Assembly: GCA_024679065.1 (NCBI GenBank) | Contig: JAGIQG010000005.1 | Span: 79,732,001-79,796,000 of the forward strand | Source of the DNA: Sphyrna mokarran | Taxonomy: Eukaryota | DNA: 64,000 nt | Reading direction: 5' to 3' | Shown: one piece after another, positions 2,046-63,106 of the stretch | Layout of the letters: each line of letters begins with the position of its first letter | Numbering within the stretch: the first letter of the stretch is position 1 | Program-made: the position numbers and the translations under genes | The notes under the pieces: model-generated | Database searches by the model: none | The model's input: only the letters and a program-made list of their open reading frames with translations | What the model was told of the DNA's origin: nothing

Positions 2046-4038
2046 TTTTTTTAATAAGTTGATTTGCTGGTTAAAAGGGAAAAGGAGGCTTATGTCAGGA
2101 TGAGGCTTGAAGGCTCGGTTAGTGCAATGGATAGCTATAGATTAGCCAGAAGGGAGTTAAAGAGTGAATTGAGGAGAGCTAAGAGAGGACACGAGAAGAC
2201 TTTGGCTGATAGGATTAAGGAGAATCCTAAAGCTTTCTTTAGATATGTTAAGAATAGAAGATTGGTTAGGGCAAGATTAGGGCCGGTCATAGACAGCAGT
2301 GGGAAGTTGTGCGTGGAGCCTGAGGAGATTGGAGAGGTACTGAATAAATATTTCTCTTCGGTATTCACGCAGGGTGAGGTAAATGTAGTTATGGAGAACA
2401 CTGAGGTACAGGGTAGCAAACTGGAAGGTATCGAAGTAGATAGGGAGGATGTGCTAGATATTCTCGAGGGTTTGAAGTTGGATAAGTCCCCTGGGCCGGA
2501 CGGGATTACCCTAGGATTCTCTGGGAGGCAAGAGAGGAGATTGCAGAGCCTCTGGCTCTGATCTTCAGGTCGTCGTTGGTTACGGGTGTGGTTCCTGAGG
2601 ACTGGAGGATAGCGAATGTGGTCCCATTGTTCAAGAAGGGGAAGAGAGACCTTCCAGGGAATTATAGGCCAGTGAGTCTTACTTCTGTTGTGGGCAAAGT
2701 ATTGAGAGAATTATTAGGGATAGGATTTATAGTTATTTAGAGAGAAATGAATTGATTGGGGATAGTCAGCATAGTTTTGTGAAGGGTAGGTCGGGCCTTA
2801 CTAACCTCATTGAGTTTTTTGAAAAAGTGACTAAAGAGGTGGATGGGGGTAAGGCGGTTGATGTGGTATATATGGACTTTAGTAAGGCATTTGATAAGGT
2901 GGCCCATGGAAGAATTCTGCAGAAAATGCAGATGTATGGGATAGAGGGTGATTTAGCTAATTGGGTTAGGAATTGGCTAGCAGATAGAAGACAGAGGGTG
3001 GTGGTTGATGGGAGATAGTCATCGTGGAGTTCGGTGACAAGTGGTGTACCTCAGGGGTCTGTTTTGGGGCCCCTGCTGTTTGTAATTTTTATAAATGATC
3101 TGGGGGAGGGTATTGAAGGATGGATTAGTAAATTTGCAGATGACACTAAAGTCGGTGGAGTGGTAGATAGTGAAGAGGGGTGTTATAGTTTACAGAGTGA
3201 CTTGGACAAGTTGCAGAGCTGGGCCGAGAGGTGGCAAATGGAGTTTAATGTGGAAAAGTGGGAGGTAATGCACTTTGGCAGGAACAATAAATGTGTAGAG
3301 TATAGTGCTAATGGTAGGGCTCTTAATAGTGTTGAGGAACAGAAGGATCTTGGTGTATGTGTCAATAGATCCCTGAAAGTAGGCAGTCAAGTGGATAAAG
3401 TTGTTAAGAAGGCATATGTAGTCTTAGCTTTTATTGGTAGGGGGATTGAATTTAGGAGCCGCAGCATCATGTTGCAACTGTACAAAACTCTAGTGCGGCC
3501 GCACTTGGAGTATTGTGTGCAGTTCTGGTCCCCACATTATAAGAAAGATATGGAGGCATTGGAGAGGGTACAGAGGAAGTTTACCAGGATGTTGCCTGGT
3601 ATGGAGGGCAGTTCTTATGAAGAGAGGCTGAGGGATTTGAGGTTGTTTTCATTAGAAAGAAGGCGGCTAAGAGGAGACCTTATTGAAACATATAAGATGA
3701 TTAGAGGTTTAGATAGGGTGGACAGTGACAGCCTTTTTCCTAGGATGGAAAAAGCTAGCACGAGGGGACACAGCTTTAAATTAAGGGGTGATAGTTATAG
3801 GACGGATATCAGAGGTAGGTTCTTTACCAAAAGGGTGGTTCGGGAGTGGAATGCCCTGCCTGCAGCAGTTGTAGATGCGCCAATTTTGGTGACGTTTAAG
3901 AGGTTAGTTGATAGGTATATGGAAGGGAAGGGAATGGTTTAGTTTGGAGGGGCATTGCTTTTTATATTGGTCGGCGCAACATCGAACGCCGAAGGGCCTG
4001 TTCTGTGCTGTAATGTTCTATGTTCTATGTTCTATGTT
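2046..4038 (+). mobile_element. 5'-truncated CR1 LINE inserted antisense into another CR1
   Basis: ORF2 RT fragments (2064-2561, 2752-3018, 3034-3942), 3' UTR and (TGTTCTA)n tail at ~4013-4040; TSD CTAAT at 2041-2045 and 4039-4043. Confidence 0.95.
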
Positions 4039-6654: not shown

Positions 6655-6927
6655 GTTCTCTGCTTGAGATCAGTGAGGAGAGTCGGGGGGAAGGTAGATC
6701 CACTGTCACTCTGCTTGAGAAAGGTGGGAAGGAAGGGGGGTCTGCTACCACTCTGCTTGAGATCAGTTGGGGGGAAAGGAGAGGGTGGGTCACTTTGCCT
6801 GAGATCAGTGGAGTGGGGGGTGGGGGGGGTGGGGGGAAGCGTGGAGAAGAGTCTGCTATCATTCTGCCTGAGATCAGTGGGAGGGAAGAGGACTCTGCTG
6901 CCACTCTGCTTGAGAACAATGTGGGGG
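6655..6927. repeat. Degenerate G-rich minisatellite, about 6 units of 40-70 bp with core ACTCTGCTTGAGATCAGTG
   Basis: The core recurs near 6657, 6708, 6750, 6792, 6861 and 6903, separated by G-runs. Confidence 0.85.
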
Positions 6928-7892
6928 AAAGGGCCTGCAATCGGTCTGGGTGGTGGGAGGGTTGGGGGATAAGGGAGTCTGTAATGTTGGGATGGTGGGA
7001 CAATATCTATGAGGCTGGCGGAGGCATTATCTGGCCCAGGATTTTTGTCGCAAGGGAGCAGCATTCTATCAGTTTTTTCTGTGCATGCGCAGTTGGAGGT
7101 GCTGATCGGAGCTACTGGGTTTTGGGCATGTTAAGCCCTGCCCACAGATTTGTGCAGCATGATTAAAATTCGCTGGTATTTTTGCAGGCAGAGTTCAGAA
7201 CAAGTCTAAACGTTGCATCTGAAACGCTCCTAGTTTCAAGTCCACCCAGTACTTTTAGTCCAAATAGTGAAATCCTCCTTACTTGTAGGTATGCCTGGTG
7301 TTGCTCTTGGCTAGCCCTCCTCAATCAGGATTGATCCCCTGACTTGGCAGTAATAGTAGAGTGAGAGATATGCCTGACTATGAAGTTACAGATTATGATG
7401 GAGTACAATTCTGATGCACAGAGTTGTCCCACAATAATCAGCAGGAGGTTTCCTTCCCCATGTTAGAGCTGGTACCATGAGGCTTCATGGGGTCTGGAGT
7501 TGATACTGAGGACTCCCAGGGTGAATCCCTCCTGTCTGTGCCACCGCACCTCTGCCAGGTCTTCCTGCTGGTGAGACAGGACACACCCAGGAACAGTGAT
7601 GAACGTGTTTAGGATATGATCTGTAAGATATGATTCTGTAAGTGTGACAATGTCAGGCTGTTGCTTGGCTAGCCTGAGGGCAGCACTTCCAATTTTGGCA
7701 CTAGCATTCAGATGTTAGTAAGGAGGGTTTTGCAGGGTTGACAGGGGTGGATTCGACATTGACATTTCCAGTTCCTCGACTGATGCTAGATGGTTTGTCT
7801 GGTTTTGTTCCTTTGAAACTTTTGCACGATTTGATAAAACTAAGTGGCTTGCTGGGCCACTTCAAAGCCATTTAAGAATCAACCAGATTGGG

Positions 7893-20320: not shown

Positions 20321-20489
20321 CTACAAGATGCAACACATAATTACAAAATGGGAGACTCTCTGTGAACTGCCTTGCTCAAGACCCCAGATGTATTCATACA
20401 TCAAAAATGTTGCTCGAGATATGTAATAGTGTTCTTTGCATTGATTAATCAAACAACTTTCTTAGGAAATTCAAGATCATAAATTTTAT

Positions 20490-20885
20490 GAGGTGGAGAC
20501 GTCGGCATTGGACTGGAATGGGCACAGTAAGAAATCTCACTAAGCCAGGTTAAAGTCTAGTAGTGTGACACTACTTGTAACCCCCACCACGCTGTCTGGG
20601 TTTGTAAAATCCTATGAACTGTGCTGGCTTGAGACCATTCACACCTCTTTAACCTGTGAGTATTCCCTCTCTTGATGCACATTGTTTGTACCTGTAAAGC
20701 CTTGATTACCTGTAAAGAGTCACATTCCAATCATTCTTCACATTCCAATCTGTAATTATCCTGCAATTGTGTCTTTGCCTATATATGCCATGTCTGTGAA
20801 CTAACTTCCATTCACCTGATGAAGGAGCAGCACTCCGAAAGCTTGTGATTCCAAATAAATCTTTTGGACTTTAACCTGGTTTGTG
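20490..20885 (+). mobile_element. Short non-coding Penelope-like insertion: pLTR plus short inverted pLTR end and terminal extension
   Basis: 11-bp TSD ATAAATTTTAT (20479-20489, 20886-20896); inverted ends CCAGGTTAAAGTC / GACTTTAACCTGG; left extension homologous to 48594-48640; hammerhead motif followed by AATAAA. Confidence 0.85.
20812..20848 (+). ncRNA. Minimal type I hammerhead ribozyme motif (Penelope type)
   Basis: UCAC-CUGAUGA-A-GGAG-cagca-CUCC-GAAA-GC-UU-GUGA: helix I UCAC/GUGA, helix II GGAG/CUCC, helix III replaced by the palindrome AGCU. Confidence 0.8.
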
Positions 20886-22989
20886 ATAAATTTTATAGAT
20901 CATGGATAATATTGATATTGGAAGAAGTACTCTGGAAAGTTTTCCTGGATGCTCTCAGAAGTCCTCTATAGTACAAATGGCTATAAGGGGTTATCAGTAT
21001 GGGTGTAGGAGCAATGAGTTAAATCTGACAAATTGTGAAAAAAATCTTTGAAGACAGACCACGAGATGAGGATTATCCGCTTGATGGAATTCACTTTAAT
21101 GAACTTTTTAAGAAAGTTTAAAATCTATGACATAGAAGATAATTGCCTTTAAACGCAAAACAAGTAGGATATATTAATGATTATTCTGTTGCTAGTAAAA
21201 GATATATTAATAGTGAAACAAACAGAACTGTGAAAACAACTTAAAATAGTAGAAAATCAACTATTCAAATTACCTTGGACATGGCAAGGCATACCATGAC
21301 ATTGGTCAATGATCAGATACAGGTTGCAAAGGTATTTTGTTTATTCTTTTTCAATATCATGTAACACACTATGCTTGTACTAATTATATGTGATTGTTTC
21401 ACAAATAATGAAGAACTACTGTCTGTGTAATCTTAAGGAATGTGTGTGTGTGTAGTGGTGTTACGGAACTAGTAATCCAGAGATTGGAATAATAACCATG
21501 AAAGTATGAATTGAAAACTTACCTTGGAAATAAAGAAATCCAACATAAACCTTAATCAATTTCAATGCTAAGACTCACCATAAGCAAATAGATTTATAAG
21601 CTGGTAATCAGGGAGGTTATTCTTTCCTTAATTACAAAGACAGTATGAGATTATGATTAAATAACTGTGATTTGCTCTGCAAAATTCACTTACTGTCTTT
21701 AAAATAAAATCTTTTAATGATTTGTTTCTGGACTCTCTCTGTAAATGTATTTTCCTGAGCCCACATTTTAGAACATTGGTGAAATGCAAATAAAGGTACC
21801 AACAATGATCACAACATCCACTTTGTCAAATACTGTTACTGGGTCCTGCTATTGTAAAGCTACATACTGATTAATAGACATTAACTCCTCAGTGTAGATT
21901 CATTTAAAGGACAGATTGATGATACAAATCTGAGAGAATATATTTCAGGCAGATCCAAAATTTGTTACGTATTCCTTATAATAAAGTAAACATTAATAAC
22001 ACTTGAACACAATAGCTTTCAAAATGCAAACAATTATGCCATAGTTAGAGATTCAAAAGTACATAAATTGAATAACAGTTAATGGTACCATCTTAGGAAC
22101 ACAACTTGCAGATATTAAATGTCTCTCTCCACTTCTTTAATGGAGCATTAAGCTGCTTAAAATAAGTGGATTCATATAGAAGAAATATAGACACAAATTT
22201 GGTGCAAGGCTATTTTTTTTGGTAACTTTGTCAACAGTAACTGTTCAAACCAGTTGCTTGCACTTAATATTTCTAACATGTCATCATCAACCGAATGAGT
22301 TGCACTCCTACAACCTGACCAGAGTTACAATTTTAAATTTGTGTGGGCTGAGCAGTTTGCAGCTGTCTGCTTTCACACATACACACAGCTTTGTTCTGTT
22401 TTCCTGGCAGTTTATGCTATTGTATATAGGATGCAGCAGGTTCTTTGCAATGGAATTGAATTATTTCACACTGATCAAAGAAAAACTTCCCAGAATCTCC
22501 GGATGGGGGATTGATGAGCTCCCCGGATAGTCAGGGAAAATCTCTGTAACTTCTCCATCAAAGTGATGGGGTCTGACTGAGAATAGCCCTGAGGAGAGTC
22601 ACAGTAGCTGAATTTACTGGCACATTTTGTTATGTTGTACAGGGAACATTAGGGGACTTAATCTTTCTGGATTGTTCTGGTATCACAATAAATTAAAGAC
22701 AAAACACGTTTTTAAAAATGTTTTATTTCAGATCATTGAAGTGTCCTGGCTGCAGTAAATAAAAAATACTGAAAAACAGGATGTTGTCTGGGTGACAGGA
22801 AACCTTTGCACACAACATGGGCTGGATTTTGCTCTGAGCTTTGGGATCCAAATGGGGGTCTTGAGTTTACTGTTGCCTACTGAAAGACCAGCCATGGAGT
22901 TCAATGCCATGGGGGCTCAGTTCCCAACTCTTTTGAGTTAACCAATTAAATTAAGTCAAATAAATTAAGAGATGAAGTAAAAGGGACAG

Positions 22990-33084: not shown

Positions 33085-33392
33085 CATAGAATCCCTACTC
33101 TGCGGAAGGAGGCCATTCGGCCCATTGAAGTGTGCACTGACTACACTTCCACCCAGCTCCTGTCCCCATAAGCCACGTATTCACCTGCTAATCCCCTTGA
33201 CACCAAGGGCAATTTAGCATGGCCAATTCACCTAACCTGCATATCTTTGGACTGTGGGAGGAAACTAGGGCACTCGAAGGAAACCCACGCAGACGCGGAA
33301 GAATGTGCAAACTCCACACAGACAGTGACCCAAGCCGGGAATTAACCTGGTCCCTGGAGCTGTGAGGCAGCAGTGCTAACTACCGTGCCACC
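33085..33392 (-). mobile_element. HE1-type V-SINE, well preserved
   Basis: GGGTGGCACGGTAGTTAGCACTGCTGCCTCACAGC head on the minus strand; tail GGGATTCTATG. Confidence 0.92.
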
Positions 33393-47430: not shown

Positions 47431-47520
47431 AAGTAAGAAGTTTCACAACATCAGGTTGAAGTCCAACAGGTTTATTTGGTAGCAAAAGCCGCTAGCTTTC
47501 GGAGCACTGCCCTTTCATTC
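47431..47520 (-). mobile_element. Penelope-like pLTR fragment with truncated hammerhead core
   Basis: AGTAAGAAGTTTCACAACATCAGGTTGAAGTCCAACAGGTTTATTTGG..GCTTTCGGAGCACTGC is homologous to the ends of 20490-20885 and 48594-48897. Confidence 0.8.
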
Positions 47521-48684
47521 TAAGAATTCATCCACATCATATTTTCTCTAAACTTATCATAATCTTGTACACCTCTATCAAATATTATCTTTACCCCAAC
47601 TAGGATAATCCAGACTTGTAAATATGTATAACCATAACAGTATTAAACAGGATGAAGAAACTAGGGATATAAAGGTGTAGGTACATTGATCTTTAAAGGT
47701 AAAATTGCTGGTTGAAAGACAATTTAAATACCAAATAGAATTCTGGGCTTTATGCTGCGGACCATTGATTACGAAGTTGGTGCCATGAAACATTTGCCAA
47801 GTCAGTACGATGGAACTATGCAGTTCATCTGGGCCATGAGAAGGTTAATTAGGATGAAATCAGGAATGAGAAGTTCCAGTTATGGGAAAAGGATTCAAAA
47901 TGTTTTTCCATTTCTCATTGGTACAGTAGGCATCTAGTAAAGGCTTTCAGAATTATAAAAGGCTTTGAGAGGGAAAGTAATTAAAACTTGTTTCTACTGA
48001 CTGGTAAATTGTAATGAAGTGTGCACAGACTGAGGATTGTCTAAAATAGGTGTGGTGATCTTAATTTGCAGTATGCTGCAAACTTTTCAATCACTGTTGC
48101 TGCTTTGAAATTAAAGATGCACTATTAATACCAGTGCTGGGTAATGAAGCAGAACAAGTGAGGGAAGATTTGGTAATGCAATACAAACTAAACCATCATG
48201 GGAATAAAGTCAAAGGACAAAGGCAAATCATAATGAAGCTAAAAGAGGACCACACCCAGATTAACTGGAAGGAAACATAAATATGTTTGTAAGTCGCCAG
48301 TGGCAAATATTTGAATAGGGAATAGGAAGGATACAATTCAAATCAAGTGTATTCAAGCAAAGAGAAAGGAGCATTTCAAAAGGATCTGATTCCATGTATT
48401 GAAGAAGAAGAGATCAAATCTTTGACCGATGAGAAAAAAATTTCATCTGTAAGCAGATAAAAAAGGAAATTGGGGACAAGTCTACATAATACATAAAGAA
48501 CATGTTCTATTGATAATGCATATGACAAACTCTACTTAAGGGAAATTCCAAAAATATGGACATTTTCATGCAATACCTGCTATGTTTTTTGGTCATGATG
48601 TAGAGATGCTGGTGTCGGACTGGGGTAAACTCAGTAAAGTTTTACAACACCAATTTTAAATCCAACCAATTTATTTGATAGTAA

Positions 48685-48724
48685 ATTCGCGAGCTTTCGA
48701 CTTTATAGCCTTCATCAGGCAAAT
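48685..48724 (-). ncRNA. Minimal type I hammerhead ribozyme motif with intact core
   Basis: AUUUGC-CUGAUGA-A-GGCU-auaa-AGUC-GAAA-GC-UC-GCGAAU. Confidence 0.8.
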
Positions 48725-48805
48725 GCAGTGTTCTGGTCTGCGATAGCACTCATATCCACACAGACAGTGTGTGGATATGAGTGCTATCGCAGACCAGAAC
48801 ACTGC

Positions 48806-48845
48806 ATTTGCCTGACAAAGGCTATAAAGTCGAAAGCTCGCGAAT
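48806..48845 (+). ncRNA. Mirror hammerhead motif with mutated core (CUGACAA)
   Basis: Same helices as 48685-48724 but G8 is replaced by A, so it is predicted to be inactive. Confidence 0.7.
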
Positions 48846-49576
48846 TTACTATCAAATAAATTGGTTGGATTTAAAATTGGTTTTGTAAAACTTTACGATG
48901 TTTTTTGGTGACATTGTGGTGAGACTTTCACATCTTTGTATCATATAATGCTTATCATTCACAGGCCTTCTATTTTGCATGTAGGTAAATAGACCAATTT
49001 GAGTCTGCATGTAATTCCTGCCTCTAGCCACTGAGTGGTGTCTATGAACAACTTTCTGAAATCTTTGTTCCAGTTGGACGATATTATTGGTGTTTGCAAG
49101 AGCATCTTACATCATTCCTGGTTAGGTAGGCATTTTCCTTCACCTTTAAGCTCAATGTTTTGAAGTCGCTGGAACAGCAGTGTGGTGAAGCAGGAATAAT
49201 AGGGCAGCTAGGATGGTAGTGAATGTATTTCTCTAACAAATGAGATTTAAGAAGTGAGAAATGGACTGAGAAATTACTGGGAAGGAAATAATCTTTTAGG
49301 ATGAAAGCTGGTCCAGAAAGAGGAATGAAGAGGGAAAGAAAGACTGGCTTATGGGAGATAATAAACAGACAAAAATAAGGAAATTAAAATTTAGAATTTG
49401 AAATTGTGAGGACATTTGACAATTTACCAATTGTTGAAAGTGGTATGACAGGTTGAGCAGTTAATTAAAAAGGCACGCTGGATTCTGAGATTTATGAATA
49501 GAGGCATCCAGTACAAAATTAAGCAGGTTTCGATTGGAGCACTGTGTCCAATTCTGGGCACCCATCTCAGGAAGGT

Positions 49577-62560: not shown

Positions 62561-62579
62561 TTCTAAATTACTCCTCAAG

Positions 62580-62892
62580 ATCACAGAATTCCTACAGTGC
62601 AGAAAGAGGCCATTCAGCCCATCGAGCCTGAATCAACAACAAATCACCCTGTCCCGAACCCTGTTACATCACAGATTTACCCTGGTAACCTCCTAAAATT
62701 AAAAGGGGAAATTTAGCACGGCCAATCAACCTAACCTGTGCATCTTTAGAGAAAACCAAGGCACCAGGAGGAAACCAACACAGACACGGGAAGAGTGTGC
62801 AAACACCACACAAACAGACAATGACCCAAGGCCGGAACTGAACATGGGTCCCTAGTCTTGTAAGGCAGAATGCTAATCACTGTGCCACCATG
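62580..62892 (-). mobile_element. HE1-type V-SINE
   Basis: GGTGGCACAGTGATTAGCA head on the minus strand, V core and CR1-like tail. Confidence 0.88.
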
Positions 62893-63005: not shown

Positions 63006-63106
63006 GGGTTAGGGTCAGGGTGATTTGTTGTTGATTCAGGCTCGATGGGCTGAATGGCCTCTTTCTGCACTGTAGGAACTCTGTGATCTTGAGGACTAAT
63101 TTAGAA
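63006..63106 (+). repeat. ~100-bp inverted duplicate of 62561-62661
   Basis: Reverse complement matches with about 4 substitutions and includes both the SINE tail and its non-SINE flank. Confidence 0.92.

Follow-up and report, generated by a model that had tools for sequence, protein, structure and literature searches.

A palindromic insertion with a hammerhead motif in each arm, very probably a one-off insertion of Penelope-like type

The 64-kb stretch of DNA analyzed here (the window) contains a hairpin-forming insertion, surrounded by repeat-rich DNA with decayed LINE-like frames that we take to be CR1-like. Each of its two inverted arms carries a hammerhead motif followed on its 3′ side by AATAAA, with both signals pointing outward, and the whole is enclosed by a short direct repeat. 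Two related pieces lie elsewhere in the window. The features, which include an end and a tail of the kind found in Penelope-like elements (PLEs), are as follows.

20479–20896, no strand assigned: related insertion E2, of another subfamily, with a tail and short inverted arm, a junction palindrome, a direct arm and 11-bp end repeats.
47431–47520, minus strand: solo stump F3, tail-less and truncated within the hammerhead, 1.1 kb from the hairpin; it has the shared motif, and its 3′ end is in register with the right arm.
48582–48593, plus strand: left copy of the target-site duplication (TSD), 12 bp, T-rich, an exact match to 48898–48909.
48594–48633, minus strand: 40-bp PLE-type tail, a one-sided 3′ extension with the putative outer reverse-transcription start; the right arm lacks it, and the insertion at 20488 has a homologous tail at its end.
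48634–48768, minus strand: tail-bearing arm, the 5′-truncated end of a repeat (pLTR-like), including the 5-nt loop and position 48768, beyond which family contigs are linear.
48670–48676, minus strand: AATAAA-containing motif downstream of the hammerhead, present in all four family pieces of the window.
48684–48724, minus strand: minimal type I hammerhead with an intact core and predicted cleavage after the C at 48691, with core and stems as defined in the available portions of PMC4209133.
48763–48767, no strand assigned: fold-back loop GACAG, 5 nt, with 1-nt microhomology (T48768 versus A48762), placed by the palindrome and the family contigs.
48768–48896, plus strand: tail-less inverted arm, 129 bp, which ends at the inner 3′ end of the family, in register with F3, and has two derived changes.
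48806–48846, plus strand: the other minimal hammerhead motif, in which A replaces G8 (core CUGACAA), predicted to be inactive.
48897, plus strand: single extra G outside both the arm and the duplication, as bounded by the palindrome and the direct repeat.
48898–48909, plus strand: right copy of the TSD, an exact match to 48582–48593.

The direct repeat encloses 304 bp and cannot be extended on either side. Its 12-mer occurs only twice in the window, where a random pair of 12-mers would match with a probability of about 5 × 10−7. The arms at 48634–48762 and 48768–48896 are mismatched at 48714/48816, 48713/48817 and 48648/48882, a divergence of 3/129 with a 95% interval of 0.5–6.8%. With a score of 117, the pair of arms is far ahead of any other short-loop palindrome of the window, the sole other one above the cut-off scoring 30, and the extension at 48594–48633 has no counterpart at the right arm. 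These are the 129-bp arms, GACAG loop, three mismatches, 40-bp one-sided extension and exact 12-bp duplication that the original prediction described. The same prediction saw no open reading frame, which is right in substance: two mirror-image stop-free frames of 73 codons each do run across the palindrome, but a Pfam search found no match for either, and one has no Met while the sole Met of the other lies 13 codons before the stop. The target is slightly richer in AT than the window (0.63 versus 0.59). Since the tail ends of the family cluster at 48592–48596, the left duplication may share its final 2 nt with the end of the element. SINE-like repeats at 33313 and 50986 match 15 nt that span the loop (E = 0.054), a similarity dismissed as chance; the family itself provides the letters of the loop.

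The segments 62561–62661 and 63006–63106 form a 101-nt inverted pair, 96% complementary and 344 nt apart, which consists of the end of a SINE-like repeat and its inverted copy, pointing outward; it is of a different repeat class and has no clear TSD, the longest shared word being 6 nt. Two LINE-like RT fragments (55–1307 and 2092–3372) lie head to head, separated by about 800 bp and 91–95% complementary along more than 1.2 kb, and at 6658–6935 there is an imperfect G-rich tandem repeat whose unit is about 42 nt long.

A motif taken from the region behind the hammerhead occurs four times in the window and in none of 100 shuffles, and the four pieces that contain it are the two hairpin arms, F3 and E2. 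The inverted part of E2 (approximately 20488–20558) comprises the tail and about 30 nt, and its direct arm, about 330 bp long, has an intact minimal hammerhead core at 20816. At the junction lies a palindrome with 8-bp arms (20559–20575), such as would be expected at 0.07% of window positions, and the 11-bp direct repeats at the ends of E2 partly overlap element sequence. The direct arm opens with a frame reading H-Y-L-stop, which we assume to resemble the end of a PLE ORF. When the 3′ ends are compared, F3 and the right arm are in register at the tail boundary, the E2 direct arm ends about 10 nt earlier or at the boundary, and the tails of the hairpin and E2 end together 40 nt beyond it. From this register we conclude that the family has two preferred 3′ ends. 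Among the longest 150 of the 169 frames outside the CR1-like regions, none matches an RT or GIY-YIG domain in Pfam (0/150), and the same search gave no convincing host exon.

Long inverted arms with a flanking TSD could also mark a MITE-like DNA transposon with long terminal inverted repeats, and the matches to miRNA models near the element might suggest a co-opted host hairpin RNA gene. We give these readings next to no probability. On one side, a 40-bp tail keeps the inverted arm from reaching the end, the relatives are asymmetric or solo, and the orthologous site in another organism appears empty (see below). An Rfam scan of the window gave no match at gathering score, hammerhead included, and the 12 sub-threshold matches near the element, most of them to miRNA models, reflect what any long hairpin would yield.

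To what kind of family does the hairpin belong? A word search of public sequencing runs listed 24, one of which contained half or more of the words, and the best run had 0.92 of 99 words. No RNA run was among the listed runs that contain the locus, which says nothing about expression. Contigs of four runs were aligned to 48195–48795, the left half of the element plus its flank; 48783–48795 has no contig cover in any of the four. In run X1, which holds the locus, 18,511 contigs fall on this stretch, nearly all of them on the tail and arm. The flank is represented by one contig (depth 17.5, no differences) that ends 30 nt into the tail, the bridging rule being 31 nt. The summed depth on tail and arm is 2 × 10^4 to 4 × 10^5 times that of the flank, a ratio that is not a copy number. 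At least 178 X1 contigs leave the tail before 48595 and enter unlike flanks (agreement 0.34), as dispersed copies. Run X18, which is RNA only by guess, contains family contigs and has no cover of the flank of the hairpin locus. In organism C (run X3), tail ends are spread over at least 63, 80, 81 and 47 contigs at 48592, 48594, 48595 and 48596, respectively, a scatter that suggests an imprecise outer start site or a short microhomology to the target. A scan of metagenomes for the motif yielded 15 loci, all 15 of which proved to be chance matches with no upstream hammerhead core and no extended similarity.

Among the loose ends listed, at least 35 contigs in X1, at least 4 in X18 and at least 11 in X2 pass 48768 into a common sequence that is not palindromic. 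The loop is therefore family sequence that belongs to the tail-bearing arm, and the turn was made with 1-nt microhomology. No contig in the four runs crosses the loop. One opposite-strand joint is among those listed, at 48684/48724 (one contig, depth 24.6), and points to a different fold-back center at another locus. None of the joints listed lies at the center of the hairpin itself, in a search of limited power, as contigs failed to cross the loop even at single copy.

The two hammerhead motifs have fared differently. Read outward, the left one has a 6-bp stem I, CUGAUGA, an extra A, a 4-bp stem II with G10.1-C11.1, GAAA and an AGCU palindrome that replaces helix III. Its core agrees with the consensus C3-U4-G5-A6-N7-G8-A9, G12-A13-A14-A15.1 and U16.1-H17, as CUGAUGA, GAAA and a CUC site. 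The core of the right arm, CUGACAA, fails the consensus, with A in place of G8. The proposal of back-to-back hammerheads thus stands by homology, but only the left core is complete. In isolation, the left motif is predicted to adopt stems I and II as its minimum-energy fold (−7.9 kcal/mol), and −9.0 kcal/mol is predicted for the motif of E2. Across three aligned rows, 23 of 24 cells are paired, with no excess over shuffles (159/500), a comparison that three rows leave underpowered. The further suggestion that a read-through transcript would sequester its own ribozyme agrees with in silico folding, in which the predicted energy of the rod is −232 kcal/mol and the pair probability of stem II falls to near 10^−19. 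Variants in the family are frequent in the hammerhead stems (48686–48709), and the one at 48688 (43% of X1 depth) replaces a G-U pair in stem I by a Watson-Crick pair.

The majority letter at 48714 in run X1 (62% of depth) gives the core CUGACGA. Given this majority core, the most plausible reading of the adjacent pair of arm mismatches is that a single CpG decayed to TpG in one arm and to CpA in the other, and it is likely that the right hammerhead lost G8 by this decay. In a PLE hammerhead, mutation of G8 (G8C was the change tested) abolishes cleavage (PMC11167929), and the metazoan PLE minimal hammerheads described in the available portions of PMC4209133 and PMC6765202 cleave poorly and only as dimers. 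The hairpin has no protein gene, and its single intact ribozyme motif belongs to a type that depends on a partner; the hairpin is therefore most likely without function.

Separate decay products fit arms that were identical at the start and then mutated separately, and argue against an assembly artefact. The second arm could in principle stem from a fold-back read or from misassembly of a repeat, as might be suspected from the lack of a contig over the loop and from the recovery of 0.92 rather than all of the sampled words in the best run. Yet the exact 12-bp duplication stands at both ends, the arms differ by one further change and by CpG-decay products of the family consensus that complement each other, the right arm stops at the inner 3′ end of the family, and the duplication is precisely where the orthologous contig of organism C ceases to match. 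We regard an artefact as exceedingly unlikely.

This contig from organism C, 1602 nt long, matches the flank with 17 substitutions and one gap in 399 bp, leaves the match exactly at 48593 and then runs on. Such a stop is consistent with an empty orthologous site, the check that the original prediction had proposed; the alignment ends where an empty site predicts, and the site itself is read from that ending. Organism C has no contig cover on 48720–48782, the 5′ part of the subfamily of the hairpin. The divergence of the arms (3/129; 0.5–6.8%) would fit an insertion that postdates the split from organism C, whose contig differs from the flank at 17/399 (2.5–6.8%), although the two intervals overlap. 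The hairpin is real, fairly young and very probably a one-off insertion, in which one ribozyme motif has lost a core base.

Several structural features suggest that the abundant hammerhead-bearing repeat is likely to be a Penelope-like retrotransposon, and the hairpin very probably a one-off insertion of PLE type. Like EN+ PLEs, the family has a minimal hammerhead in its terminal repeat (in the left arm and in E2), a 30–40 bp tail at one end only (48594–48633, with a homologous tail in E2 and none at the right arm or F3), and an inverted 5′-truncated copy placed head to head with a palindromic junction. Its copies are dispersed, and the TSD is of about 8–12 bp (here 12 bp), in a target only slightly richer in AT than the window. 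The available portions of PMC8557442 and PMC8969392 describe an inverted 5′-truncated copy with a 30–40 bp tail at one end as the typical PLE arrangement, and those of PMC3846280 give TSDs of 8–10 bp and read head-to-head junction palindromes as self-priming. Minimal hammerheads paired on opposite strands, 100–700 bp apart, appear in the accessible part of PMC4209133. Short stumps would be normal, since de novo PLE insertions in Chlamydomonas have a median length of 128 bp (PMC9977147, in the portions available). Of the two alternatives first offered, the extreme case of an inverted PLE pLTR with a tail is supported by the 5′-truncated head-to-head layout and by the linear run of the family past the loop.

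If the hairpin is a PLE insertion, how did its inverted half arise? Read inward from each flank, both arms are antisense to the element RNA. In the geometry of TPRT, a cDNA primed from either nick would be antisense to that RNA. The Poseidon PLE nicks and extends both strands in vitro and has two reverse-transcription start sites whose spacing equals the tail (PMC11167929), and two start sites so spaced would leave one end tailed and the other tail-less. We propose that an RT/GIY-YIG protein from an autonomous copy elsewhere would have nicked both strands of the T-rich target, 10–12 nt apart. From the top-strand nick, cDNA synthesis would begin at the outer start site and cover the 40-nt tail and some 135 nt more before it stopped. 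The end of the cDNA would then turn back over the 5-nt loop and be extended on itself as template. Finally, the opposite nick would take up the new strand, probably through base pairing with another cDNA that had started from the inner site, and capture of this form would account for the end of the second arm at the tail boundary. Following insertion, one CpG would have decayed differently in each arm, with loss of G8 from the right hammerhead, and one further substitution would have arisen.

The turn would have relied on 1 nt of pairing only, and we found no special DNA structure at the end of the arm, where the cDNA would have stopped (z = 0.61). It is also possible, though we consider it doubtful, that the two nicks primed separate cDNAs, one per start site, which stalled alike and were end-joined head to head through the 1-nt microhomology with no fold-back. 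The extension of both nicked strands from two start sites in vitro (PMC11167929), the start of each arm at one or other of the family's two 3′ ends, the single nucleotide of microhomology and the very unequal arms of E2 would all suit twin cDNAs. Such an origin would, however, require two independent stops within 5–6 nt of each other, at a point that is not a fixed RNA end, as the family is linear past it, and the junction palindrome of E2 would need a fold-back step anyway. Given near-perfect symmetry at a place where the family runs on, a cDNA that turns back is simpler than two independent stops, and the E2 junction palindrome points the same way. In the available portions of PMC3846280, self-priming requires an antisense template, which the PLE cDNA itself would supply. 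On balance, we lean toward fold-back copying with capture at the second nick over twin cDNAs.

The second alternative offered at the outset was a mobile hairpin family with a shared junction, for which we find no support: family contigs are linear at the loop, and the junction of E2 is different and asymmetric. Under this alternative, the whole fold-back unit would be transcribed as a non-autonomous retroelement, and PLE protein would insert it anew, so that its daughters would share the junction. A minus-strand transcript of the unit would keep the tail and both 3′ start regions, non-autonomous PLE derivatives do exist (PMC8557442 and bioRxiv 10.64898/2026.07.22.740005, in the portions available), and low-copy daughters could be present, as the junction is invisible in contigs. 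However, the contigs at the loop end (at least 35, 4 and 11) are linear, the joints listed include no opposite-strand joint at this center, and both CpG mismatches are explained as decay at the hairpin's own locus. An RT would, moreover, have to copy through the predicted rod of −232 kcal/mol, and the 64-kb window holds no second copy of the fold-back unit. We therefore regard a mobile hairpin as very unlikely. Just as improbable, in our view, is that the unit is re-mobilized at low copy by PLE protein, as a protein-free hairpin, and feeds a locus-specific small-RNA defense against the family. Taken as a whole, the locus is best explained, and we hold this with good confidence, as a dead one-off insertion of the hammerhead end of an abundant repeat, likely a PLE, with an inverted half that likely arose by fold-back copying.

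By itself, a single hairpin locus of a known kind of insertion has little importance. The available portions of PMC8557442 still treat the origin of inverted PLE ends as an unsolved problem, and the abundance of this family, with its 18,511 contigs in X1 alone, makes it a natural data set for addressing that problem. Junction centers and differences in arm length, collected genome-wide, would separate fold-back copying from twin cDNAs. The hairpin, as a complete fold-back to the inner start site, and E2, as an 8-bp fold-back followed by a jump, would then mark opposite extremes of a single series. Transcription of such hairpins, if it occurs, could also provide double-stranded RNA against the family. 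We found no description of PLE hairpins in sharks in a literature that was mostly without subscription papers, and absence from print is not established.

How does the hairpin compare with known systems? It resembles the non-LTR retrozymes in being non-coding, derived from a PLE end and equipped with a type I hammerhead. As described in the available portions of bioRxiv 10.64898/2026.07.22.740005, those elements are head-to-tail tandems with a complete hammerhead per unit, whereas the hairpin is head to head with one intact motif, and we rejected this assignment. Its hammerheads share with the minimal type I hammerheads of metazoan PLEs the core, the extra nucleotide between 9 and 10.1, G10.1-C11.1, the palindromic 15.2-16.2 and the absence of loop 3 (PMC4209133, in the portions available). 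Stem II of the left motif has 4 bp, compared with 7–8 bp for the Schistosoma hammerheads described there, and the right copy, unlike PLE minimal hammerheads, lacks G8. The opposite orientation of the two motifs leaves one sense motif per transcript and no dimer in cis. The closest likeness is to the complex insertions of EN+ PLEs, which, in the available portions of PMC3846280, PMC8557442 and PMC11167929, also have head-to-head inverted ends, a one-sided 40-bp tail, a TSD of about 10–12 bp in AT-rich DNA, a palindromic junction, heavy 5′ truncation and a hammerhead near the end. Unlike them, the hairpin has neither an ORF nor a direct second pLTR, and its link to PLEs is one of structure. Whereas the PLE junction palindromes published in the sources available to us measure 15–38 bp, that of the hairpin spans the whole 129-bp arm.
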